DNA of 64,000 nt, from contig JAUFOR010000002.1 in assembly GCA_040285745.1 (NCBI GenBank), positions 2,046,001 through 2,110,000 on the forward strand, read 5' to 3'. The position numbers were made by a program, and so were the translations under genes. Every line of letters begins with the position of its first letter. Position 1 is the stretch's first letter. The stretch is from Barthelona sp. PCE (Eukaryota). The notes under the pieces are model-generated. The model saw nothing but the letters and a program-made list of their open reading frames with translations. It made no database searches and was not told the DNA's origin. Below, piece by piece: positions 33,960 through 50,160 of this stretch.

Positions 33960-34055
33960 TTTTTTTTTTCTTTTTTTGCAATTCCTTATTTTCATTTTAA
34001 TACCCAAAAATGAATGTACTTTTAAATATAAGACCCAGCCGTGGTGAAATTTAAG

Positions 34056-34566
34056 CGTACATTCCGGATTTCTCTTTTTTACTATTTTTATGGCCCGACC
34101 TCGTGCTTGTTGAATGATGGAAGCATGTGGTTGACGGAACTCATGGCAGAGTGAATCTGTGACTCATGTTGAATGATGGAAGCATGTGGTTGACGGAACT
34201 CATGGCAGAGTGAATCTGTGACTCATGAATGTGCTGTCCGAATTACGTCCTTTATCGTACATTCCGGATTTCTCTTTTTTACTATTTTTTATGGGGTGGG
34301 AACTCAATTACCCGACCTCGAGCTTAGGAACTTATTCACGCCATCCAACTAGATATCTGTCAGTAAACATGCATGTATCCGAGAGAACTCAGCCCCTGTG
34401 AAGTCATTTATCGTACATTCCGGATTTCTCTTTTTTACTATTTTTTATGGGGTGGGAACTCAATTACCCGACCTCGAGCTTAGGAACTTATTCACGCCAT
34501 CCAACTAGATATCTGTCAGTAAACATGCATGTATCCGAGAGAACTCAGCCCCTGTGAAGTCAATTT
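34056..34566. repeat. Composite repeat array: ~38-bp leader x3, 59-bp doublet (34108-34225), 156-bp doublet (34251-34561)
   Basis: CGTACATTCCGGATTTCTCTTTTTTACTATTTTT at 34056, 34256 and 34412; doublets visible directly. Confidence 0.9.
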
Positions 34567-34567
34567 A

Positions 34568-37500
34568 TTAACGTCTACGTATTGCCTTCATTTTGTGACC
34601 AAAACCAGCTTGCCCCTTTGGATTTGATTGAAAAACAGCTTGCCCCTTTGGATTTGATTGAAAAACAGCTTGCCCCTTTGGATTTAATTGTGGAGCGGCA
34701 GTTTGTTCGTCCAAAGAGACATATGTAGTAAAGCGTAAAATATTAATACGTCCATACTTTTTAATAACCTGTTTTTCACTCATAGCTTCTTTAGAACCAA
34801 ATACTGACTTTTTTAATGTGTGTTGCATGGTGGAATGACCAAATCCAAAACTTTGCTGGTGATAAGTCTTCTTTCTTCTACGTCCACCTTCTTCAGGTTT
34901 CTTACCCTCCAATACGCATTGAATACGACCAATTAATCCAGTGGTATCCTGAAGAAGACATCTTTGATAAGCTTCTGGCATTTCTTCATGTAACGGTGCG
35001 AAAAGAATTCTTCCTTCCTCCGGTTTCGAACAAAAGTATTTCAGGAAGAAGACTATCCAGCTGTAAAGACGCTTCTTTCCAAGCTTCTTGATACTAGAAA
35101 CAAACTCTTCTGGTGTAGGAGTTTTAAAACTATAATGCTGTGCTCCTCTGACATTGGGAGTTGCAATAGCAAAACGACATATATAATCAATTGCTTCAAC
35201 GAACTCAACTTCCCGAACACCCATTAACAAAATGAAGTTGTTTGAGACATCAATGAACGGATATTTGTCCATCATATTAACAGCAGTTGCAAACACTAAA
35301 TCAAGGAATTCTGGTTCTTCGGCATAAACTGTATGACTGTATTTCAATGGATGTGCAGAGTACTTGAACAATTCAATGCGATACTGATTATAATTCACTT
35401 TCATACCGGTTTTGAGAGGTTTAGTAACCATATTAGGATGAAGATTCTTCTTGTCCAAAATATTCTTGAAATCATAAACGCCTTCAACAAATTTTGAATA
35501 AGCTTCTCTTCCAAGAGTCTTATACACTAAAAGTCCAAGACCAGGGATTGAATTATTGTAATCCATGCAAATGACATCGACTGAGTCCATGCACCACTCA
35601 CCCAATTCATCACTTACGATAGAATCATAAGCTCTTGCCAATTGCAAAGAGCAGTGACGAACAACATGAAGCATGCAACGTTTGTTGACTGGTTTAGCTT
35701 TCTCACCCTCTGGTTCGAAGCGAAGAACAGGCAAAATAACTGAATGTTCAAGCTGTGGGTAAATTTCCAACCATGCCTCATGATCCAAGCGCTTCTTCAA
35801 CGCTGTGAATAACTTACACATCTCCTTCAACAGTTCCTTGTTGGTTATGTATCGTTCGGCGCTTTCGGTAAAGATTGTGAACATTGGACTGTTTGTCCAG
35901 TCACCATTGGACTCGAACAAGCTCATTATCACTTCCACAGCAATGTTGAACAAAACCAATCGAACATCAATAGAGATACGTTTCTTCCAGATCATTAAAA
36001 TGAAATCATCAACATCAAGCGTACGATCGTGCATTGCTATCTGACGAGCGAGACAGATCACCATCTTTGTTGAAGTAACCCCCAATTGATTTTCGCAGAT
36101 ATTGGTTATATCCTTCATAAACGTGTTCAATTGGTCCCCACTGAAATAGCGAATCATGGAGAGCAAATTGTTCATTGCCAGGGGTGAAGTACGGTTGAAT
36201 TTGAGTGCATGCAATAAGAACTCGTAGTCGTTACCGAAACACTTGAAAATCTCGACAACAGCATCTTCAATGTCGACAGAAAAACCGCGGCAGAGAACAC
36301 ATGCACCAATGACTTGATCGCGCTGAGATTCAGAAAGTGTAATGTTGTAAAAATGTGACAAACAGTTGAACTCCTTAAAAAAGGCTTTGATATCGCCTAA
36401 TCTTCCCATCAGGGCATCAAGTCTCTTCTTGGATGCCTGTGCTTCAACCTTGCTCGTTTCAGTACTCTCCATGGTGGATAAAAGCTGCTTCTGCTTCTGA
36501 GTAATCTCTCCTAAAAGTGCGATGTACTCATCAAACTCACCCATAATCTCATCACGGATACTGTCTAGCTCACCCTGTCTTACAACCAGCATGGGATCAT
36601 ACTTGATCTCTGAGGCATACTTACGCCACGTGGTACGGGTAATAGGAGGATGATAGTTTGTGCTAAAGGCGTGGAGACGTACACCTGGCTTGAACAAACG
36701 ACTCTTGGCAATAGAAGTGCTCTTGATGACCTTTGCATCTGAAAGAAATCTTGCTTCTTTAACTGCAAAAGTTGCTTTAAGATTTGGCAACGAACATCCC
36801 ATATCAACCACAAGATTATCAAGACCGTACTCAGTCAAAAAATTCTGATTTGGAATCGTGATACGTTGTTCCGTTTCGTTTTCTACACTAAAGTACTTTA
36901 GACTCTCGCAAAACTTCTTGAGAAATGCGCTGAGGTTTCCACGCATGTTGGGTTTCAGAGGACCAGCAAACGCTCCCTTGATAACATCCACCCAGAATGG
37001 AACATTAATACTTGTGTTCTCCTTATACTTTGCAACAACATCTTTTTTAGCAGCCTGTTCCCTAAAAAAGCTATCACGGGTGAAGCTTCCATTCTTTAAA
37101 AGGTGCTTCATGGAAAACTGGGGTGGAAAATCGGGATAGATCAAAGGAATATCCAATTGGTAGGTATCCATTTCGCTTTCTGTAAAGAAGTGTGTCATCT
37201 CCCTCAGATAATATGCAGCTGCCTCAATAACATCATTCCCCTGAGGTGAAAGAGATATGCTACAAAGTGGTGAAGTCCACGTTTCTGAGAAGAAAATGTT
37301 TTTGTTGCAACTCGTTGGAGAAGCCAACATGAAATTTAGTGACTTGAATATTTCAATGATAATATCAGTATGAAAGATTGCGGTACAAGGAACTATAACC
37401 TTCTCGTAACCTCCATCACAAAAGTCAGAATGTAGGTTACGAATAATTGATTTAGAATCATATTTGTTGCGGAAGAGTTGGATGATAAGTCTCAGTGCTT

Positions 37501-38710
37501 CAAGTTCGAGATCTCCTTCCCATAAAAGGTACCTAGAAAGGAAACAAGCAACAACATCAACATGATAACCGCCACACTTCTTAGAAACAAATTTTTCAAA
37601 CACTTCCTTAGTTGCTTCATCAACACGGATAGTTTGATGAAGGTATGTTATCTCAACCAAATTTTCGCTGTCAATAATCGAAACATTTCGTAAAACTGAA
37701 AGCACAACTCCTCTATCACTAGCAGGGCAAGTTTTATCGGAATTCACCTTCTTCCACACCCCTAGTTCTTCTAAGAAACCAAATGGAGCTCTAGGAGGTT
37801 GGGGAATTTTCTCTAAATATTCATAATAAACACCTAAATCAAGTAAAACAGGTTTCAGCTCACTTAACAACATAAAATTCCCTGATTCTCTGACGATTTC
37901 CAAAAAAAGTTCTTCATCGTATTTGAGAACCATGTAAATATTGTCACCATCAACTAAAACACTTCCGTCACGAATACTATCCACAAGCACTGTCGGATAA
38001 CGAGAATAAACTTCTTTTTTCAAAGCTACCTCCAGATCAGAAAAGTTATGATTCTCGGAGTGTCTTACAATCTCAACAACACTATCAACAAATGTGTTAG
38101 ATTTTTTGATTAAACGTTGCACAACCGCCTTATGTTCGCGGTAAAAATAACGCATGCTCAGTCCGTTATTGAACTTATGTAACATATATGCTTCAAGAAC
38201 AGGCAGTGTTTCAGTACGTTTCAACAAAGCGGAAAGCAACTTTATATCAATTTTCTCAACTTCAATGTCTTGCAGGACTTCAATTGAACAGTTTCCGATG
38301 ATTTTTGCCTTGTCTTCGAACGAGAATGAACCAGTTTCATCCGTGTAGATGTCATCACATATGGAACCGAAGTTGCACATGCTTCGACCCAGTTTAGTGA
38401 TGAATCGTTGTCTCACAGCAGGATTCAACTGCTTTAGCTTGTCCAGGACGTTATCCTGAGCCATAAAAGCCTTGAAAACTAAAGGGAAATCAAAGAATCT
38501 CAATACAAGACGCTTATCCTCGCTATTCAGTAATTCGAACATGCGCTCGTAGTCCTTGCGCATTCTCAAATGATGCAAATATGCCTTTTTCTCTTTAATC
38601 GATGAGAATTCTGATAAAACTGCATCAAAGACTGGCAACTTGCACAACTCAGCCAAAAGCTGGTTACGGCACAGAGTGCTGTCGTTGATTAAACGTAAAA
38701 AACTATCCAT
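34568..38710 (-). CDS. Large alpha-solenoid (HEAT/ARM-like) hypothetical protein, ~1380 aa
   Basis: Uninterrupted helical ORF; second ATG (38710) is the likely start; basic low-complexity C-terminal tail. Confidence 0.75.
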   Translation of the reverse strand: MDSFLRLINDSTLCRNQLLAELCKLPVFDAVLSEFSSIKEKKAYLHHLRMRKDYERMFELLNSEDKRLVLRFFDFPLVFKAFMAQDNVLDKLKQLNPAVRQRFITKLGRSMCNFGSICDDIYTDETGSFSFEDKAKIIGNCSIEVLQDIEVEKIDIKLLSALLKRTETLPVLEAYMLHKFNNGLSMRYFYREHKAVVQRLIKKSNTFVDSVVEIVRHSENHNFSDLEVALKKEVYSRYPTVLVDSIRDGSVLVDGDNIYMVLKYDEELFLEIVRESGNFMLLSELKPVLLDLGVYYEYLEKIPQPPRAPFGFLEELGVWKKVNSDKTCPASDRGVVLSVLRNVSIIDSENLVEITYLHQTIRVDEATKEVFEKFVSKKCGGYHVDVVACFLSRYLLWEGDLELEALRLIIQLFRNKYDSKSIIRNLHSDFCDGGYEKVIVPCTAIFHTDIIIEIFKSLNFMLASPTSCNKNIFFSETWTSPLCSISLSPQGNDVIEAAAYYLREMTHFFTESEMDTYQLDIPLIYPDFPPQFSMKHLLKNGSFTRDSFFREQAAKKDVVAKYKENTSINVPFWVDVIKGAFAGPLKPNMRGNLSAFLKKFCESLKYFSVENETEQRITIPNQNFLTEYGLDNLVVDMGCSLPNLKATFAVKEARFLSDAKVIKSTSIAKSRLFKPGVRLHAFSTNYHPPITRTTWRKYASEIKYDPMLVVRQGELDSIRDEIMGEFDEYIALLGEITQKQKQLLSTMESTETSKVEAQASKKRLDALMGRLGDIKAFFKEFNCLSHFYNITLSESQRDQVIGACVLCRGFSVDIEDAVVEIFKCFGNDYEFLLHALKFNRTSPLAMNNLLSMIRYFSGDQLNTFMKDITNICENQLGVTSTKMVICLARQIAMHDRTLDVDDFILMIWKKRISIDVRLVLFNIAVEVIMSLFESNGDWTNSPMFTIFTESAERYITNKELLKEMCKLFTALKKRLDHEAWLEIYPQLEHSVILPVLRFEPEGEKAKPVNKRCMLHVVRHCSLQLARAYDSIVSDELGEWCMDSVDVICMDYNNSIPGLGLLVYKTLGREAYSKFVEGVYDFKNILDKKNLHPNMVTKPLKTGMKVNYNQYRIELFKYSAHPLKYSHTVYAEEPEFLDLVFATAVNMMDKYPFIDVSNNFILLMGVREVEFVEAIDYICRFAIATPNVRGAQHYSFKTPTPEEFVSSIKKLGKKRLYSWIVFFLKYFCSKPEEGRILFAPLHEEMPEAYQRCLLQDTTGLIGRIQCVLEGKKPEEGGRRRKKTYHQQSFGFGHSTMQHTLKKSVFGSKEAMSEKQVIKKYGRINILRFTTYVSLDEQTAAPQLNPKGQAVFQSNPKGQAVFQSNPKGQAGFGHKMKAIRRR
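34606..34690 (-). repeat. 30-bp coding tandem repeat (NPKGQAVFQS), about 3 copies
   Basis: CAGCTTGCCCCTTTGGATTT at 34606, 34636 and 34666. Confidence 0.9.
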
Positions 38711-39013
38711 AAACTGTTGAAATGAAAAAAACAAGGTAAATCGCATTTGCTGTGTTAAACACAGCCATTATTTACAAAATAAATCTGGGGTGTCTATCAA
38801 CTTCATCCCAATGTAGCTTAATATTTTGTTGTTCTTATGAAAAAGCTTATTGAACCGTAATAACACTATTCTTTTGGGTCAATTTTCGGTCTTTCTTGTT
38901 GTTCGGGTGATTATAGTACTCCTTTTAATGTGCTGGAAGGTCTAAAAAATTTTGATAATTGGGTCACTTCTTGAATTTTTATTTATTACCTTTATCACCA
39001 TTATATAATATCA

Positions 39014-40741: not shown

Positions 40742-40973
40742 AAAAAAATAAAATACTGCCCATATCTGAATTTAATCTCTATGAGATTAAAACTATCCCA
40801 CTTTTCGCATCTTATTTGAACTTGTAAAACTTATGAAATGGTGTGAAAATAAAAAACAGAATTATTATCGCTACAAGTACATTAACGTTCATATTTGAGT
40901 CAAAAATTTTACATTGATACGTTCAACGTCAACATTCGTTCGTTTCTACTATGAAAAAAAAAATCCAAAAAAG

Positions 40974-41045
40974 CACGATTGACAGGGATCGAACCTGCGA
41001 CCCTGAGCTTAGGAGGCCCAAACTCTTCCACTGAGTTACAATCGC
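40974..41045 (-). tRNA. tRNA-Arg (CCT)
   Basis: GCGATTG/CAATCGT acceptor, ACTC/GAGT D-stem, TGGGC-CTCCTAA-GCTCA, GCAGG-TTCGATC-CCTGT; T-run downstream. Confidence 0.95.
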
Positions 41046-41181: not shown

Positions 41182-41294
41182 TTATCCTCTATCCTACACC
41201 TTGGATGGTTTACTGAAGTGACAGCCTGCATGTTGGGAGGGCAGACAGAACGAACCGTTAGACAGGACGGGTACGGATCAATCAAGATACCGCC
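41182..41294 (-). repeat. Split direct repeat B2 (113 bp)
   Basis: Identical by eye to 41705-41817. Confidence 0.95.
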
Positions 41295-41565
41295 GCACGC
41301 TACGTACCCGTAGAGCCATGATTAGTGGCTAACTGTCTCGCTATTGAGAAAATATGATGAAATTTTTTGTAAAATTTCTTGATAAAACTTACCTGCGTTC
41401 TTTCTGCACTAGGATATAATTTATGCAGAAGATGATGAAAGACTTTCTTGGATAATCCAGCACAGAATGTGTGCGGAGTAGTTTTTTCCAAGCTCACGGA
41501 AAAACAACAAAAAGTTTCGAAGATTATGCTTGAAATTTAACTTTCTGGTTTTTTGTCTTTTTTAA

Positions 41566-41704
41566 TTTTTTGAATTCAGGAAAGAAATCGAAAAGCAGTT
41601 ACTCGAGTCCGAGTAACTTAGCTAGGATTATTCTTTAACTCTCACTATCAGTGTATGTCATCTAGGTTTCGGGTGCATCAAGATTCCGATTGCCATCAAC
41701 TACA
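41566..41704 (-). repeat. Split direct repeat A2 (139 bp)
   Basis: Identical by eye to 47856-47994; abuts B1; contains hairpin AGTTACTCG-agtc-CGAGTAACT. Confidence 0.95.
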
Positions 41705-41817
41705 TTATCCTCTATCCTACACCTTGGATGGTTTACTGAAGTGACAGCCTGCATGTTGGGAGGGCAGACAGAACGAACCGTTAGACAGGACGGGTACGGA
41801 TCAATCAAGATACCGCC
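41705..41817 (-). repeat. Split direct repeat B1 (113 bp)
   Basis: Identical to B2; overlaps the YR stop codon. Confidence 0.95.
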
Positions 41818-43025
41818 CATTCTCGTATCTGGTTTATACTGTACAGTTCCCCCGGCATGGCGTACTCCAGGTCGTGAATATCCAGGTAATACTTATTCAT
41901 GGTTTCATTGGCGCTCCAGCCCCCAATCTGTCTGGCTGTGTCTTTGTCACCATGAATTTTGATAATATCTTGGCATCTCCCCGCTCTTATGGCGTGGGGG
42001 TTGAATCTCGCTCCAGGCGGTGCACCTATGAGGTTTGGATCGTCAAAGACGGTGTTAAACCTTTTTAGAATTTTTTGCTTCCCGGTCTTTTGCTCCTCTA
42101 CTGAGGAGTAACGCGGTGCCCTGCCGCTTTGTTTCGAGTACATGCACAGTAAACGGCGCAAATACACTTTCGTACCAATATTTTTTGGGGAGTTGTTACA
42201 AAACGTCCTTTTCGGCTTTTCCCATGCGTTTTATGCTTTGGGATTATCACTGAGAGGGATTGCTCCATGCTGTTTTCATGAAGAGTGATCTCAAGGTGTC
42301 GTTTTTCTATAAAATTCAATTCTCCCGATCTACAACCGAGAATGTAGTGGATCGACAGTATTTGGCAGTCCAGGATGCATTGTTCCACCTCCTGTGAGAC
42401 CATAGCACTTATTTGGTCTCGTGGAGAAATTTTTGTCCTTTTGGGGCTCTACGATAGTCTCGTGGGCTCTCTCTTGGACGAGGAACAGCAGCTTCTGGAC
42501 CACAGACGCTCTTATAGCGCATTTATAACTGTGTGATTTGGGGATTGCTCCGCTTTCGTCGGTTATGATCTTTGTACGAGCTGAAATGAGGTACTGCCTG
42601 TCTGTATCTCAGGCGTCCTCCCAGCAGCCGGTTGTAAGCAGTCTAATAACTCTTAAAGAGTTTCTTAGAAGGGATCCTTATGCATCAAGAGTGCTACTCT
42701 TGTAATGCAGGATTTGGGCTGTGTTGCCTTCGGGCGATTCGCCCTTTTCGGCTCTCTCCACTAGGTCAGCTATGCGTAAACCTACTAACAGTTTGCAGTG
42801 GCTTGGATTTTTTATCCAGCCATACATCCTCCTTATTGCATTCTGATTAGCTTCAATGTACTGTCCAAATCGCTTGATGGCGGTCCTGGCTGTGCTTAAG
42901 GAACCTTTTCTTAAGAACAGCGCCAGGAGTTCGTCTACTCTCATTATTTCGGCTGGAAACCTGAAATGTTTCCTCACTATGAAGGGGACATCTATCCTTA
43001 CGAAGTCAGTGTCGCCCTTCCACAA
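41805..43025 (-). pseudogene. Tyrosine recombinase (frameshifts and in-frame stops)
   Basis: LGCRSGEL (catalytic R), IPKHKT (K), PHAIRAG (HxxR), IGGWS..TMNKYY (W, Y); N-terminal STARTAIKRFGQY. Confidence 0.85.
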
Positions 43026-45480
43026 GCTTCCTGCTTGTACAGCCTTTGATTTGACAGGGAAAAATTTTTTCCGGGTTGATGGTAATTTCGCACATTTCTT
43101 TCCATGGACGAACGAACTGCGATACCATACCCCACACGGGTGTGGATGGGAGAGGTTGTGGTAACTTCTCTGATAGTAACACCGGTCCTAAGGGCCGCTA
43201 GTAAAATAATTTCTAACGCCGCTGCTGCTGACTGGGCAGGGACCATCTGTTCGACTGTGTGGCTCTCTCTTCCGATCATATCTATCTCAAACTTCGGTTT
43301 AGAGCGGGGGACTGTGTATATTATATCTTCCAGTCCCTCAAACACTGGTGTTGTATCAATTTTGTCTTCTCTCAGTTTTAAGAAGGGTGCCATTAACTTG
43401 GGCAGTCCCTGTCGTCTCGATACGGGCATAAACACTAAGTAGTTTTAGAGTGTTTTTCGAAACAAGTTCATTACCCGGATGCAGCCAACTGAGCGGCCGC
43501 TCTTGTCCTGTTTTGCTCTCGCTATGAGGGGGCTGGTATGGCCCGGCTCATAAGCGCTTGGGACGACAGAATTTAGAATTATAATCTCCTTTGGGGGAAC
43601 GAGCTCTTGAAGGAAGGTTCCCCTCGATTGTTTCCAGCAGACTGGCTCTCCACGCGAGGCCATGTCCGAAAGGTGATTAAGTACAGAGGGAACGTAAATC
43701 GCTTCCACAACAAGGTCCTTCTCTCGGCAGAATATTCTTGCCAAGGTCCGGGCAGCATCATTGGGGACAGTATTGCACGACGTTAGTTTGTACGTCGCAG
43801 CTACCACATAAGTGTTATCGCAATACTAAAACGAGATATCCGTTGGATAGCTTGGACCCGAGGCTGTGCAGCATAGCCATCAGGGGTTCCGTCTCTGCAT
43901 AAGCGATCGACAGTTTTGTTTTCTGGATCGCTTTCGCTTTATCTTTTGCTGATAGCATATTCAGCCTATCGATGAGTTCATTCTTGGCAAGATCAATGCC
44001 GCCTCCACTGCGAAGTAGCAGGTGTTCGAAACAGGTTTCGTCAACATCATCCGTTGCGAAAGCTGTGCCTGCGATACTTATTTTCTCTTCACTTACAGCA
44101 GCGTCACTTATTAAAAACCCGCTTTTTCCTGGTGGAAAGAAGGGGTTGTGGTGGAAAATCGTGATCGGCTAAACTCGCAAGGGTACACGCGAGGTGGTGT
44201 GCCTCGTTTGTACCAATGAATCCAAGTGGAGACCCGCTGGTAGGGTCTGTTGCCTTTGGCTGGGCCTCGATCTGGCCGTATTCATGATGCTGGACCTCCT
44301 TCAGGTCTTGATCGCCGATCGTGAGCGATCTCGTCATGAGCCACTTGGTTATTTTTCCAGGAATGCCATCTTTATCCTTTCTTCTTTTCTTTAGTGCTTC
44401 GTGTATGATGGCATTGATCGTAATGGCGGAGACATGTAGCTTTCTGCTAGCAGCTCTAAACGCCGTGCACTTCGATGCAAGTTCTACGAAGTCTTTTTTT
44501 TCCTTGCATGAAGCTTGTGGGCCAGTTCTTGAGCCCTTAGCGCGATCTTACGGCAATTAGCATCACTTGGTGCTAATGCCACTTTCATATTTGGATCGTC
44601 CGGCGGTCCAAAGGTAGATGTGATGGTGAAACCTATCACATCTAATTTCTTACATGGTTCGACAGATTTTTTCTTGTTGATAGTGATATCCAACCAGAAA
44701 CAGATTAGCTTGAGCAGACGCATGGCGTCGCTGGCACTACGGTATCTGCCTCTTCGATCTGGGGATTGCCATCCGAAAACATCGTCTATGTAGGCCCATA
44801 GTTGGTAACCTAGAGCACGCATAGGCGCTAGGGCTAGGTTCATCAACGCTGAGAATATAGCGGGGCCAAAACGTGACTCCGAAGCACAACTTTGTGCACC
44901 GGTAAAAGCCACCGTTGAGGGAAAATGTAAAGAACTTTTGAAAGTCTTCCGCAATGGGGATGAGATGGAAGCCGTTGGATGCATCGATGGAGAACAAATC
45001 ATCGTTCGGGTTTACCAGGTTAAATAACCGCACCTTGGGCAGTTCCATTGGGAACATGTTAAACATGTCGTTAATCGGGGTGCAATCAGTAATAATTCTT
45101 ATATCACTTACTGAGACATCTTCGAAGTACTCCTCAATGTCTTCTCGGCTGGCCCAGTCTTGGCTGAGGGCGACAATGGCCGATTGTTCGATGCCTTTGG
45201 GCACCACACCGATTTTAATAAAAGCTGTTTTTACGCCAACAGGAGGTTTCGACATTTCCCAAGCTGGGTCATGATCCAGCTTAACAAAGGCGTCGCTTTT
45301 TTCTATCTTTTCCTGTACTAGGAGGGAGATGAGCGATCCATCCTCAAACCAGTTTTCTTATGGACCGTTAAACGGTCTTTTACGGATTTGAGAAACGTTT
45401 TTTGATTACTCATGACGTGATGGGCGCTTATTCCGTGCGTCAACATCGATTGGAGGTTGGTGGAATGGTCGTCACTTAAA
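42998..45480 (-). pseudogene. Reverse transcriptase-RNase H (frameshifted)
   Basis: IRIITDCTPIN, SIDASNGFHLIPI, LCFG..GPAIF, AYIDD, IGFTI; RNase H LISDAA, IAYAE, YCDNTYV, VPSVLNHLSDMASR. Confidence 0.9.
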
Positions 45481-47807
45481 CCTGCGATTTTTTCATAGTA
45501 TCGATGCGTTGACGGGTTTGAAGAGGCGCATGTGGGATCGTCTGTAACGTATACTCCATGAATTTCTCTGCCTTGTCTAGATATATTCCTAGCTCTCGTA
45601 TTTTTAGGCCGGGGATAGCGTCCACAAGAGACGCTGGCGGAGATGGCTCAGCCCAACCAGTTAGGTCAGGGGCCTGTATACTTACTGTCTCACTCGCTCC
45701 ACGCTGGGGTTCCTCAATGCTGGCTGAGATTGGCCTGGCATTTTTCTGCACCGCAACGTTAAGGCGGTTTTGAACCACTCAGCACTCAGGGTAGGTCCTA
45801 CTGGGCCTACAACTGGGGATATGTGAGGTTGTGTTGGTGTTGGTGTTGGTGGCAACTCCTCAACAGGTTCTGGTGCGATAATGTGGGATTATAGGGATGC
45901 GACAAGCGCTATATCCATGTATAAGTCCCTATCGCGGGAGGCAGCCGCTAGATCTGCCTTAAGTTTGGGGATAATGACGCTTTTTTTCGTGCTTCAGCTT
46001 TACGCTTTCTGCGCCTTTGATCCTCCAATAAACCTCGAATTTCGAGAAAAAGGTGTCGTTATGCGGGCCAACTAGCGCCTCACGGTGCTGTGGCGGCATA
46101 ACAGATGCGGACAGTTTCTCAACTGGGATTTACAAGTGAGAGATTCGTCATCTCACTTTCTCCTGCCTACACTCTCCTGGATTGCTTGCGCTTAGGGACA
46201 TCAGGAGGGCGGGAGGTCGACGAATAGCGTCGAGGTGCTGGTAGGGGGGTTGCACAGGGGAGTTTATGACCCTCGTACAATCTGCCATAGATGTGGCGTC
46301 GGTTACCGAGATTTTTTCTCAAGGCCCTCATGAAACTAGACTTTTCATGGGTGACGCCACGGCCGATGATGGTGAGTAGGATGATCTTCATCAGGTACTC
46401 AGCCACTGCCTATGGCTACCGTCAGCTCCAGGACGCGGTGGGTTAGGACCACTGGGACTACCGTTTTTAGACGACTAGCGTGATACTGTCTTCTCTTTCA
46501 AGAATTTGAGGAGTTGCTGGGGAAGCTGACGCTCTCGTTCAAGGCTCTTTGCCGAGAGGAGCTGTCAGGGATGACCCCCATCCTGTCTAAAACGTCCGGG
46601 ATTCCCGGGGAGGACTTACAGCCGAGGTAGCTGCTGGTCCTGGTAGTGTCAAAAGTGGTTATTACGGATTTCTCACAGTTTTTTCAACGTGGTTTTCTAC
46701 GGATTTCTCACAGTTTTTTTTCAACGTGGTTTTTTAAGGATTTCTCACAGTTCTCAAGTGTGGTTCTTAAGGGTTTCTCGCAGTTCTTCCATTACTGGAG
46801 GAGCCTTCGGGCTTGGACTGCTATCAGCGAGGTAAGGAAATCATTCATCCTTACCCTGGCCTCTGGGTCTGTGCCCCCTTGTGGTGTGACCAAAGTGGGG
46901 CCTCAGGCTCCTCAGGCGCCTCCTCGACATATCGGGAGACGCCGCGAGATTTCACCTTGAACGTTGGGACAATCTCATCACGTACTTCCGCGACGTTACT
47001 CGCGGGCTTGAGGACTGCCTTAAAGGCTGCCTCGTCAAAGTCACTGGCCGCCTGGGGCTTCCTACGTGTACTTTGTGCTAGATGTCTGACGCGATCTAGC
47101 TGAGGAATCGCAAGCTCAAAGAGCATCTTGTTGCCCCTGGCTGTCTGTTGATGTCTACTGAGAGTAAAGAAGACGAGAAAGAGGTGGAAAACGTAGATTT
47201 ACGTTTCTTCCCTCTTTTGAGACTTACTATTTTATTTATTTTTAAACTATTGTGGGTGTAGGTACGAGGTACCTGCGTCCTCAGTAGGCTCGTCTTCTTC
47301 TGAATCCCACTCTGAAACTCAGTAAACACACTAGCAAGTTTTACTCCTTTGATAGAGTAACATGCACTCGAAGTAAGAATCATATCCCAAGCTTTTTGTG
47401 CGATTCCTGCACGCGACCTGGTAAGGTCGGCTGTTGCCTTTCTTATTATCCCAGCGGTGGCCTCCGCTGTGGGCATGCCCATAAAGAGGAGGAGTAACGC
47501 GTACTGCTCCCCTTTGCCGCCCTCGCTGCTGCCTCTGTCCCAAACCCGCTGGGGCTGGGCTCATTGTGGTTTAGCAGCGGTATTTCATCTACAGTGTGCA
47601 CCCAGGATGCCAATAGGACAGGTAGTACTATGCCGCTCAAGTGAAACGATTTCTTGAGCTTCCCGAGGTCTGGGGTGTCCCTGAGGCTGTACATAGTCTC
47701 AAAGGTGGCGACTACCATGTCCCTGGCCCTCAACAAGGGCTCCTTACAGTATGTTTTTAAATTTCAAAACTTAGATATTCTATTCCCTCATTTACATAAC
47801 CCGACAT
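45480..47807 (-). pseudogene. ORF1 / gag-like region (multiple frameshifts)
   Basis: Probable ATG at 47807 (MSGYVNEGIEYLSF); chain of overlapping ORF fragments upstream of RT. Called by position only. Confidence 0.5.
46657..46785. repeat. Degenerate ~31-36-bp tandem repeat x4 in ORF1
   Basis: GGATTTCTCACAGTT at 46666, 46701 and 46738, plus a variant at 46772. Confidence 0.8.
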
Positions 47808-47855
47808 TGAACAAAGGATTTAAATCTCAATGTATATCAATCTTTGACGGGTTTT

Positions 47856-47994
47856 TTTTTTGAATTCAGGAAAGAAATCGAAAAGCAGTTACTCGAGTCC
47901 GAGTAACTTAGCTAGGATTATTCTTTAACTCTCACTATCAGTGTATGTCATCTAGGTTTCGGGTGCATCAAGATTCCGATTGCCATCAACTACA
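47856..47994 (-). repeat. Split direct repeat A1 (139 bp), 5' end of the element
   Basis: Identical to 41566-41704. Confidence 0.95.
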
Positions 47995-48263
47995 GTTATA
48001 ATTTTGAATAAAATTATGGTCTAACTATGTAAAAAAAAGATTCATTTTTTAATTTTTTAAAAGATTAATATCTAAAAATTTAATTATTAGAATTGAAGAA
48101 ACATTAATAGTAAAGTCTTTTATAGTTAGTAGGCAGGTTTTTTTGAAATAGTTTATTGTGCTTTTATCTTTTAGATATTATACTGAAGTAGGTTTATTGA
48201 CGTCGGGGAACGCTCACGTGGGAAGGCTCGCCTTCACGTGTAGAGGGTGTTTCGTCCGGGAAG

Positions 48264-48559
48264 TGGCCTAAAACCCTTTTTTTTTTGAAAAAGGTAAGAA
48301 AAACCGTATCGGGTCCTACGGACACCTACTACACATGACGGTTCGCTTCGTCCCCCTCCGCTGTTTACTACCTCAAGTATAAAGTCTGAAGGCTAGCGCC
48401 TGTATGTCACCTGGCCTAAAACCTTTTTTTTTTGAAAAAAGGTAAGAAAAACCGTATCGGGTCCTACGGACACCTACTACACATGACGGTTCGCTTCGTC
48501 CCCCTCCGCTGTTTACTACCTCAAGTATAAAGTCTGAAGGCTAGCGCCTGTATGTCACC
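48264..48559. repeat. 148-bp tandem doublet
   Basis: TGGCCTAAAACC...TGTATGTCACC at 48264-48411 and 48412-48559, differing only in homopolymer lengths. Confidence 0.95.
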
Positions 48560-48602: not shown

Positions 48603-49577
48603 TCACTGATCAAAAACAACAAGATGAACACCTCCAGGATCGTCCTCACCTTCTTCAAATTTAATAACAAACTTGTTTTTATCCATTGCAATAATGTGGT
48701 CAACAAAATCGTAATCACCAATACGAGTTCTAAGATCCATATCGATCACGAAAGCTTCGTCAAATACAGAAAAATATGCTGATGCACCTACCATGATATT
48801 GAAATTAACATTAATATCATTGCTAGTCTTTTTCCATGTTTCAGACATTATATCAAATGAAACCCATGTTGGATTTCCATTTTCTAGTACAGTGAACGTT
48901 ATGTTATTCGTTTCTTGCCTGTAGACAGCAAAATATTTCATGGATAGTTTGACTTCGCCTTGCAGCTCGTAAGTATACTTTTCCTTACTTTCAACGTTAT
49001 ATATTATGGAATTAGTGCCCGGTATAACAAGATAACCAGCATGCACAGAGAAATGAGAAGAAAAATCTTCAAAAATGTGTAGTATTTCAAAATCTTCACT
49101 TTCTATTGTTGTTCTTGCAACAGCAACTTGGTTCACATCTCCATCCAGTGGCACACCGTTCATATAGATGTGATCGGTATCAACTACGATGTGCATGGGT
49201 TTTGTTTGAAAGGGATATCGATGAGTCTTTCTTGAAAAAACACCCCATTCAGTATTTAAAAAAAATACATCGTATTCATTATGATGGAAAAGCAGCAACG
49301 CGTGTGCTGAAGCAGAGTATTTAAGCTCAGACCAGAAAAGATCATTGGTATTGGCATTTAGTGGAAGTTCTATGTGCTCAATAATGTTTTCTGGGGTTGA
49401 GACCGATCTCATCTCAACAAAAAGGTTCCCGTCAGGTTCAATAGTATTATCATTTTCTTCATGGAAAGAAAGTACCAAAAATTTGTCATCATCAACAAAA
49501 GTAAGACCTGTTGCTGTTGGAAATTGTAAAACAACACCCGTTTGATTATCTTCAAAGGGTTCTATCTCAAAAAACAT
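48603..49577 (-). CDS. Hypothetical acidic beta-propeller-like protein
   Basis: 324-aa ORF with a beta-strand pattern. Confidence 0.65.
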   Translation of the reverse strand: MFFEIEPFEDNQTGVVLQFPTATGLTFVDDDKFLVLSFHEENDNTIEPDGNLFVEMRSVSTPENIIEHIELPLNANTNDLFWSELKYSASAHALLLFHHNEYDVFFLNTEWGVFSRKTHRYPFQTKPMHIVVDTDHIYMNGVPLDGDVNQVAVARTTIESEDFEILHIFEDFSSHFSVHAGYLVIPGTNSIIYNVESKEKYTYELQGEVKLSMKYFAVYRQETNNITFTVLENGNPTWVSFDIMSETWKKTSNDINVNFNIMVGASAYFSVFDEAFVIDMDLRTRIGDYDFVDHIIAMDKNKFVIKFEEGEDDPGGVHLVVFDQ

Positions 49578-50160
49578 AATAAACCGGAAAGAAAAGGAAT
49601 AAAAGATTCGTACAAACGATTCATAATAAAATAGTACTTGTGACTATACATTTACAGTTTGCTTGAGATCATTGAACAATAAAAACAACAATAAATAAAA
49701 GAAATGGGCAGAACAGAAAAAAGTAATAACAATTGCTTTGAAATTGGATACAAATTGCTTCTTGCGTTAAAAACCCTGTTATAATCATAAAAAAGCCCCA
49801 GAAAGCACAGCAAATTAAGTTTAAATTATCGATGAAAACAACAATTCCCTTCTTTTTGTTAATACAAGAATCTTTATATGTCTGAGCAGCACACACCATG
49901 CAACCGTATCTATCCAAGAGAATTGAAGGGTACTAACTTGAACATATAATCCCACTAAGTGTAATCGCCCTTAAAGCACATAATCAACGAGTTTTCGTTG
50001 TTTTATAACCCTAATTACATCATTTATATGCAAAACATAAGCATGCTAAAGAGATTGTTTTTTTGTTTAACTGAGAACTATTCTACTCTTTTGGTGGTAC
50101 TCACCGAACTTAACATTAGTAAAAACTAAGAGAAAATCCACAGCAATCCTTAAACATCCA

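Follow-up and report, generated by a model that had tools for sequence, protein, structure and literature searches.

A 148-bp tandem doublet in Barthelona sp. PCE, probably a duplication within the 3' remnant of a second YR-type retroelement family

The 148-bp doublet at positions 48264–48559 of the window (the whole 64-kb stretch of Barthelona sp. PCE DNA analysed here) is probably a recent tandem duplication within a dead 3'-end remnant, of about 400 bp, of a second family of YR-type retroelements. The best reading of the data is that the doublet is of mobile-element origin, yet has nothing about it that would mark it as a miniature element in its own right. What looks like a plain tandem repeat would therefore be retroelement debris, and the doublet an ordinary remnant with a local duplication.

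That the doublet announced by the first-pass annotation is real is agreed upon by TRF, a repeat search and gapped alignment. TRF gives a period of 148 and 2.0 copies for 48264–48559, and the two units, aligned with gaps, show no substitution and differ by 1 nt in the length of two homopolymers (C3/C2 and A5/A6). The units are:

48264..48411, no strand assigned, doublet unit 1 (148 bp, GC 0.47; TRF and repeat search)
48412..48559, no strand assigned, doublet unit 2 (148 bp; same as unit 1 bar the two 1-nt homopolymer length changes, gapped alignment)

Neither flank continues the 148-bp repeat, as judged from alignment of the flanks, and within the 64-kb window the unit was found at this locus only (BLASTN, word 7, E<=10). 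With exactly 2.0 copies and flanks free of further repeat, the locus does not have the features of a satellite or variable array, which had been named beforehand as an outcome that would refute a miniature element. An exact-pattern search of prokaryote-genome contigs with a 40-mer of the unit gave 0 matches. The doublet (GC 0.47 in the unit) and the 68 bp to its left (GC 0.60) belong to a 364-bp GC-rich island (48196–48559, 0.47–0.60) amid neighbouring intergenic DNA at 0.18–0.26. Its right end is sharp and coincides with the GC-rich/AT-rich border of the remnant. Gapped alignment showed no microhomology at the duplication junction, and the first 11 nt of the doublet (hereafter the 11-mer) are not repeated at its right end. 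We also considered the doublet as a coding sequence and rejected this candidate, as no ORF of more than 55 aa crosses it.

The doublet lies close to a resident element, which we call family 1: the measured gap to A1 (47856–47994) is 269 bp, in agreement with the distance of about 270 bp given earlier. The resident element is 6.8 kb long, lies on the minus strand and has split direct repeats in the order A1-(ORFs)-B1-A2-B2:

47856..47994, minus strand, A1 (139 nt, 100% identical to 41566–41704)
41818..47855, minus strand, element interior with gag-like region, RT, RNase H region and tyrosine recombinase (three-frame translation, tblastn with P0001–P0003)
41705..41817, minus strand, B1 (113 nt; its first nt is base 3 of the conserved Trp codon, with the stop 9 nt further on)
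41566..41704, minus strand, A2 (139 nt; abuts B1)
41295..41565, minus strand, A2-B2 spacer (271 bp; antisense weakly B-like)
41182..41294, minus strand, B2 (113 nt, 100% identical to B1)
40973..41045, minus strand, tRNA-Arg (CCT) (ARAGORN; 136 bp downstream of B2)

The coding sequence of the resident element is split over all three frames and is 90–98% identical to three Barthelona sp. PCE proteins (P0001–P0003). P0001 and P0002 match Pfam RVT_1 above the curated cut-off (E 1e-11 to 3e-11); none of the 14 ORF pieces of the resident copy, which is frameshifted, reaches this model, and a YIDD motif is visible in the translation of the element.

Several features of the resident copy deserve mention in their own right. 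Although many frame breaks interrupt the family-1 copy at 41818–47855, both of its repeat pairs, A as well as B, show 100% identity. The gene models of P0002 and P0003 have breakpoints in common with the window copy, for instance one ending in ...GYLVLVLR; the shared frame breaks reflect either the copying of a defective lineage or systematic homopolymer errors left in assembly repeats. A 37-nt repeat (3.8 copies, 80–95% identity) occupies 46644–46785 in the 5' gag-like region. The flank outside A1 (47995–47999) reads ATAAC in element sense and resembles the B end GATAA before A2 (41705–41708), as if the element had inserted into a target resembling the joint between B and A. Finally, the tRNA-Arg (CCT) gene has the same orientation as both retroelement sequences, which may hint at insertion upstream of tRNA genes.

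The resident family has relatives in the same organism. A HMMER search with P0001 as query retrieved P0004 (1923 aa, 34% identity, E 4e-102), the representative of five near-identical Barthelona sp. PCE proteins (P0004 and P0152–P0155, 1849–2533 aa), which define what we call family 2. The P0010 and P0013 lineages display the same tail pattern and catalytic motif, so that there are at least four lineages of polyproteins combining RT with the YR motif (P0001, P0004, P0010 and P0013), all annotated as hypothetical proteins. None of the four families departs from H-x-x-R, W and Y, which are spaced by 3, 23 and 10 residues. Pfam Phage_integrase is matched with an E-value of 0.01 and 16.1 bits, under the cut-off of 27.1, and in a profile search against the PDB 13 of the 17 matches were Cre/Tre catalytic domains, all of them weak (E 0.13–0.95). 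From these sequence features, families 1–4 are all predicted to possess a tyrosine recombinase catalytic domain. According to Pfam, two of the family-2 gene models are chimeric: in P0004 a COMM-domain segment is fused ahead of the retroelement ORF, and in P0155 a splice within the retroelement tail joins it to an ABC transporter. The genome itself is a 10.2-Mb nanopore and Illumina assembly polished with short reads, as described in the available portion of the genome paper (PMC11316075). A term search for 'retrotranspos' and 'DIRS' in that portion of the text returned neither (PMC11316075), and a literature search on YR retrotransposons and metamonads yielded no report of such elements in barthelonids.

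The left edge of the doublet ties it to family 2. In a tblastn search, residues 1898–1923 of P0004 matched 48274–48197 on the minus strand with 26 of 26 residues identical (E 7e-11), and the match is followed by TAA. Because of this tail match, the GC-rich 68 bp and the first 11 nt of the doublet can be assigned to the 3' end of a sister-family polyprotein gene. The family-2 coding tail shares 11 nt with the start of unit 1: these first 11 nt are the antisense of codons V-L-G-H in a minus-strand ORF that continues into the left flank. The corresponding features are:

48194..48274, minus strand, end of the family-2 polyprotein, its last 26 codons and TAA stop (tblastn; read as the 5' part of family-2 B)
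48164..48193, minus strand, possible 3' remainder of family-2 B (ends GATAA, family-1 B ending GGATAA; boundary uncertain)

The 26/26 match to the C-terminus of P0004, a protein 34% identical to the resident family, bears out the origin from a sister-family retroelement that the first-pass annotation had proposed. Its claim that the doublet is oriented opposite to the element is true of the B-like strand only, whereas the coding tail reaching into the doublet shares the minus strand with the element.

The tail was found in one protein cluster only. All five members of the P0004 cluster have the tail ...ELEGWVLGHFPDETPSTREGEPSH; four of the five end in ...VSVPRRQ, and P0155 is spliced from within the tail into the neighbouring gene. 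Among 5.8 billion clusters, none besides the P0004 cluster contains the tail. When the 43-aa window ORF that holds the tail was used as query, only the P0004 cluster was retrieved among longer proteins and nothing among short proteins, and an exact-pattern search with a 41-mer of the family-2 tail gave 0 matches both in prokaryote-genome contigs and in viral contigs.

The point at which the homology begins is informative as to the nature of this stretch. Homology to P0004 starts at V1898, directly after W1897, which aligns with W138 of family 1, a Trp that is invariant in all four families; upstream of V1898 the window reads F-F-K-K-K-R and the protein M-E-L-E-G-W. We read the stretch 48197–48274, which like the resident element is on the minus strand, as belonging to the family-2 B repeat. 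By analogy with family-1 B1, family-2 B would start at the conserved Trp codon. Since the homology starts right after this Trp and the sequence upstream is not the family-2 ORF, the B copy appears to be 5'-complete and in a B2-like context, and we infer that it is of the B2 type rather than the B1 type. B complete at its 5' boundary without the family's ORF before it is the configuration of a solo AB repeat or 3'-repeat remnant. When 48274–48164 was aligned globally to family-1 B, the score was reached by 23 of 2000 shuffles, 108 of 2000 block-preserving shuffles and 38 of 2000 genomic segments.

The rest of the unit appears to be related to the same B repeat in the inverted sense. Three features can be distinguished:

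48275..48301, no strand assigned, A/T-rich near-palindromic linker CC T10 G A5 GG (hairpin loop; minus strand resembles the 3' end of family-1 A)
48302..48411, plus strand, inverted, diverged B-like arm of unit 1 (alignment to family-2 B, hairpin fold)
48450..48559, plus strand, B-like arm of unit 2 (second copy of the unit-1 arm)

Positions 50–132 of the unit's plus strand are collinear with positions 2–99 downstream of the 11-mer in the minus-strand B, and under three scoring schemes the score of the unit's plus strand against family-2 B was reached by 20, 60 and 356 of 10000 shuffles (p 0.002–0.036). Under one scheme the family-2 B tile ranks first of 2536 window tiles, and under another it falls outside the top 10. 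The inverted similarity is weak (about 60%), interrupted by many gaps and scheme-dependent. It went undetected by BLASTN. In nhmmer leave-one-out tests, a model of family-1 B plus family-2 B missed the unit at E<=100, a model of family-2 B plus the unit missed family-1 B, and a model of family-1 B plus the unit matched a 23-nt piece of family-2 B (E 9.9). Folding is consistent with an inverted repeat: one unit plus B (248 nt, minus strand) folds as a single long hairpin at -80.7 kcal/mol, compared with -62.9 +/- 4.9 kcal/mol for shuffles (z -3.63, 0 of 200), and when folded as DNA it gives z -2.03 (4 of 200). All this is best explained if the plus strand of the unit copies family-2 B imperfectly and in inverted orientation. 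As the segment ahead of B (hereafter the pre-B segment) would consist of an imperfect inverted B and an A/T-rich linker, it could form a hairpin of about 100 bp with B; and the weak B-likeness first noticed in the unit's plus strand would follow from this, the strand opposite to it being the one that pairs with B. Family 1 offers a weak parallel in its spacer, whose reverse complement scores against B at a level reached by 247 of 5000 shuffles and which folds together with B2 at z -2.44 (2 of 100 shuffles). Family-1 repeat A has no inverted likeness to B (z -0.33).

The collinearity with family-1 B from which the first-pass annotation had started survives in part: the blocks that it listed do align in order, but the significance of the alignment is marginal and depends on the method. 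The core of the alignment comprises 24 columns with 20 matches. In the shuffle test by which that annotation had proposed to check it, a local alignment of the unit to B, 29 of 2000 dinucleotide shuffles reached the score; a repeat of the local test gave 43 of 1000 shuffles and 27–63 of 2000 random window segments. In global alignment, the score for unit positions 38–137, the range originally aligned, was attained by 8 shuffles and 11 GC-matched segments (2000 of each), that for positions 38–148 by 55 and 46, respectively, and that for positions 12–148 by 1206 of 2000. Over the original range p is about 0.004–0.05 depending on the test. As a query, the unit found its two best matches among 268 tiles of the resident element in B1 tiles; among the 2536 tiles of the window, one of the three scoring schemes places B tiles at ranks 4, 5 and 10, and the remaining two leave them out of the top 10. 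When B served as query, tiles of the doublet came at ranks 17–48 of 2534. The relation was detected neither by BLASTN in the window (word 7, E<=10) nor by the nhmmer leave-one-out models, and in a control a low-complexity alignment of the unit with the AT-rich DNA on its 5' side scored equally well (10 of 2000). Taken on its own, without the family-2 evidence, the unit's B-likeness would thus be suggestive, not established. A degenerate core motif common to the unit and B occurs at 7 loci in metagenome contigs, all GC-rich (0.52–0.67); we discarded these as chance matches, the likeness being confined to a motif of 23–29 nt and tblastx finding nothing.

The minus strand of the unit was likewise compared with family-1 A. 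Positions 110–131 match positions 117–139 of A locally (15 of 2000 shuffles), a low-complexity match, and the 137-nt pre-B segment aligned globally to A (139 nt) at a score that 41 shuffles and 60 genomic segments, out of 2000 each, also attained, a weak hint. One possibility, resting on the low-complexity 3'-end match and the similar length, is that the minus strand of the unit represents the family-2 A repeat.

These observations are best explained by the following arrangement in minus-strand sense: 137 nt of pre-B segment with the first 11 nt of B, then the 137-nt pre-B segment again, then B with the last 26 codons. Because the duplicated segment holds 11 nt of B, present in both units, the junction between family 2 and the pre-B segment must predate the duplication. 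A family-2 element would have inserted into a convergent intergenic region and lost its interior through recombination or truncation, leaving the pre-B segment and B. The pre-B segment would be family-2's own sequence ahead of B2, either its A2 or its spacer. A stretch of 148 bp across the pre-B/B junction would then have been copied once, recently, by slippage or template switching, perhaps aided by the hairpin, and the remnant would have no present function.

Near-exact doublets are not rare in the window, which also contains, at 34108–34568, one of 59 bp x 2.0 (100%) and one of 156 bp x 2.1 (98%). The 156-bp doublet (34247–34568) proved unrelated to A, B, the family-2 tail and the unit in eight comparisons (all z<=1.6). 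Both belong to a duplication cluster at 34033–34690 that comprises a partial copy (34033–34108), the 59 bp x 2.0, the 156 bp x 2.1 (1 substitution) and a 30 bp x 3.0 repeat. Like the 148-bp doublet, this cluster is convergent intergenic and lies directly 3' of a minus-strand ORF (34571–38767), but it has no relation to A, B or the unit.

Some observations count against a duplicated family-2 remnant. The duplication ends on the right just where the remnant does, which random slippage does not predict; the junction lacks microhomology and the similarity of the arms is weak and scheme-dependent; and family-1 A is not inverted-B-like, the family-1 spacer being only weakly so. A variant that we regard as improbable would have the inverted-B segment and B2 form a native 3' hairpin playing the part of the DIRS-1 internal complementary region in cDNA priming or completion, with the extra 148-bp copy left behind either by a template switch during reverse transcription or by a short strong-stop-like cDNA recombined into the donor. 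If so, the ends of the unit would mark the ends of the family's RNA or cDNA.

Among the readings that dispense with a native inverted segment, the most serious, possible though on balance unlikely, is a head-to-head composite in which the minus-strand family-2 B abuts the plus-strand B of another or older YR family, the junction having been duplicated and nothing being mobile now. In a three-way alignment the unit's plus strand does resemble family-1 B and family-2 B alike, and in the frame that matches the tail the unit reads T-V-S-G-P-T-D-T-Y-Y-T-stop, which recalls W-V-L-G-H-F-P-D-E-T-P-S-T. The proteome of the organism contains at least four YR-type families, and the same convergent intergenic site also took in the family-1 element. 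Such a composite would nevertheless require a break precisely where family-2 B begins on its 5' side, together with loss of the rest of that element, and among the proteins of the other families none has an ending like that read in the unit's frame; the similarity of the arms is too weak to separate a native inverted segment from a foreign B. The first-pass annotation had instead seen in the doublet a candidate minimal non-autonomous A-B-A-B element. Spelled out, this would be a self-contained plus-strand miniature, A1-B1-A2-B2 without interior, with an A of about 38 nt and a B of about 110 nt, mobilised in trans by a sister YR family. The exactly 2.0 copies without substitutions are what is expected if the repeats regenerate at insertion (the Ngaro/PAT model as given in the accessible text of PMC6681497), the B-like part (110 nt, as against 113 nt for family-1 B) is weakly collinear with B (8–55 of 2000 shuffles), the right end falls at a compositional boundary, intact sister families exist, and short non-autonomous YR derivatives are known, such as SIRE of VIPER (same source and extent, PMC6681497). 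The left end of the doublet speaks against it. The left 11 nt of its 'A1' are inside a continuous minus-strand family-2 ORF tail that extends into the flank; a doublet end located inside a B repeat and ORF tail is not an element terminus, which argues against a self-contained A-B-A-B. Moreover, the 11-mer, expected at the right junction after site-specific integration via a shared core, is missing there; the 64-kb window holds no second copy; the short derivatives described in the consulted portions of PMC6681497 and PMC8547959 are single A..B units, not doublets; and the B-like part, marginal in its resemblance to B and not picked up by BLAST or nhmmer, makes up an inverted repeat together with the family-2 B beside it, which is on the strand opposite to the proposed miniature. 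We therefore consider this claim to be mistaken in all likelihood.

Two further readings were weighed. The view that assembly introduced the second 148-bp copy into a locus that really has one would fit with a nanopore assembly polished with short reads (PMC11316075, from the part of the paper at hand), with homopolymer lengths as the only differences between the copies and with the inverted repeat at the locus; it is very unlikely, as assemblers rarely make clean 148-bp tandem duplications and the window contains two more near-exact doublets. We give scarcely any credence to the idea that the units encode small RNAs, or serve the gene next to them as a regulatory module, with no tie to a retroelement. 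Each unit has a T10 run, a possible Pol III terminator, and the doublet lies 44 bp from the stop of the neighbouring ORF:

48603..49643, minus strand, neighbouring 346-aa ORF (no Pfam match; stop 44 bp from the doublet)

Rfam at E<=10, however, returned three matches only, each far under its gathering score; single units fold as RNA no better than shuffles (z -0.10 to +0.77); ARAGORN found no tRNA-like gene at the doublet; and a retroelement coding tail overlaps the unit. The 346-aa ORF has no tblastn match to P0004, P0010 or P0013.

A duplication in a family-2 remnant thus remains the reading that we favour, and it can be set beside several known systems. The resident element has the repeat layout (A1-ORFs-B1A2B2), the RT and the YR motif of Ngaro/PAT/VIPER-like DIRS-order elements, but differs from this layout by its 271-bp A2-B2 spacer. 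Family 2, its 34%-identical sister, is known here from proteins and the tail remnant. Together with the other lineages, it suggests that this free-living metamonad, with its 10-Mb genome, has no fewer than four lineages of YR-type retroelements. In Cafeteria burkhardae, the solo AB repeats of Ngaro retrotransposons are intergenic remnants consisting of terminal repeats only, as far as the accessible text describes them (PMC8547959). Like these (PMC8547959, within the same text), the locus studied here is a short intergenic terminal-repeat remnant of a split-direct-repeat YR element with B outside an ORF context; unlike them, its pre-B segment is tandemly duplicated with 11 nt of B, and this segment would be an inverted, diverged copy of B and only possibly an A repeat. 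SIRE of Trypanosoma cruzi is a short derivative of VIPER corresponding to the A2-B2 region, and the available text leaves open whether it is mobile or a mere remnant (PMC6681497). Like SIRE, the doublet is a few hundred bp long and stems from the region of the 3' repeats in a YR retroelement (PMC6681497, same passages). SIRE, however, is described there as highly dispersed and as a single A..B unit (PMC6681497), whereas the doublet is known from one locus. With ordinary young tandem duplications the doublet has in common its two head-to-tail copies at one locus, and it differs from them in that its DNA is retroelement-derived and one of its ends is the edge of the remnant. Lastly, as in DIRS-1-type elements, whose internal complementary region is mentioned in the text to hand (PMC6681497), a segment complementary to the terminal repeat lies just upstream of the 3' repeat and may fold back. 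If the pre-B/B hairpin were native and conserved, it would link the split-repeat and inverted-repeat DIRS architectures, and a native hairpin would give a testable handle on cDNA completion by split-repeat elements. DIRS-1 itself has inverted terminal repeats, as that text has it, while the neighbouring family here has direct, split repeats, and the complementarity at the doublet is only about 60%, its role being putative.
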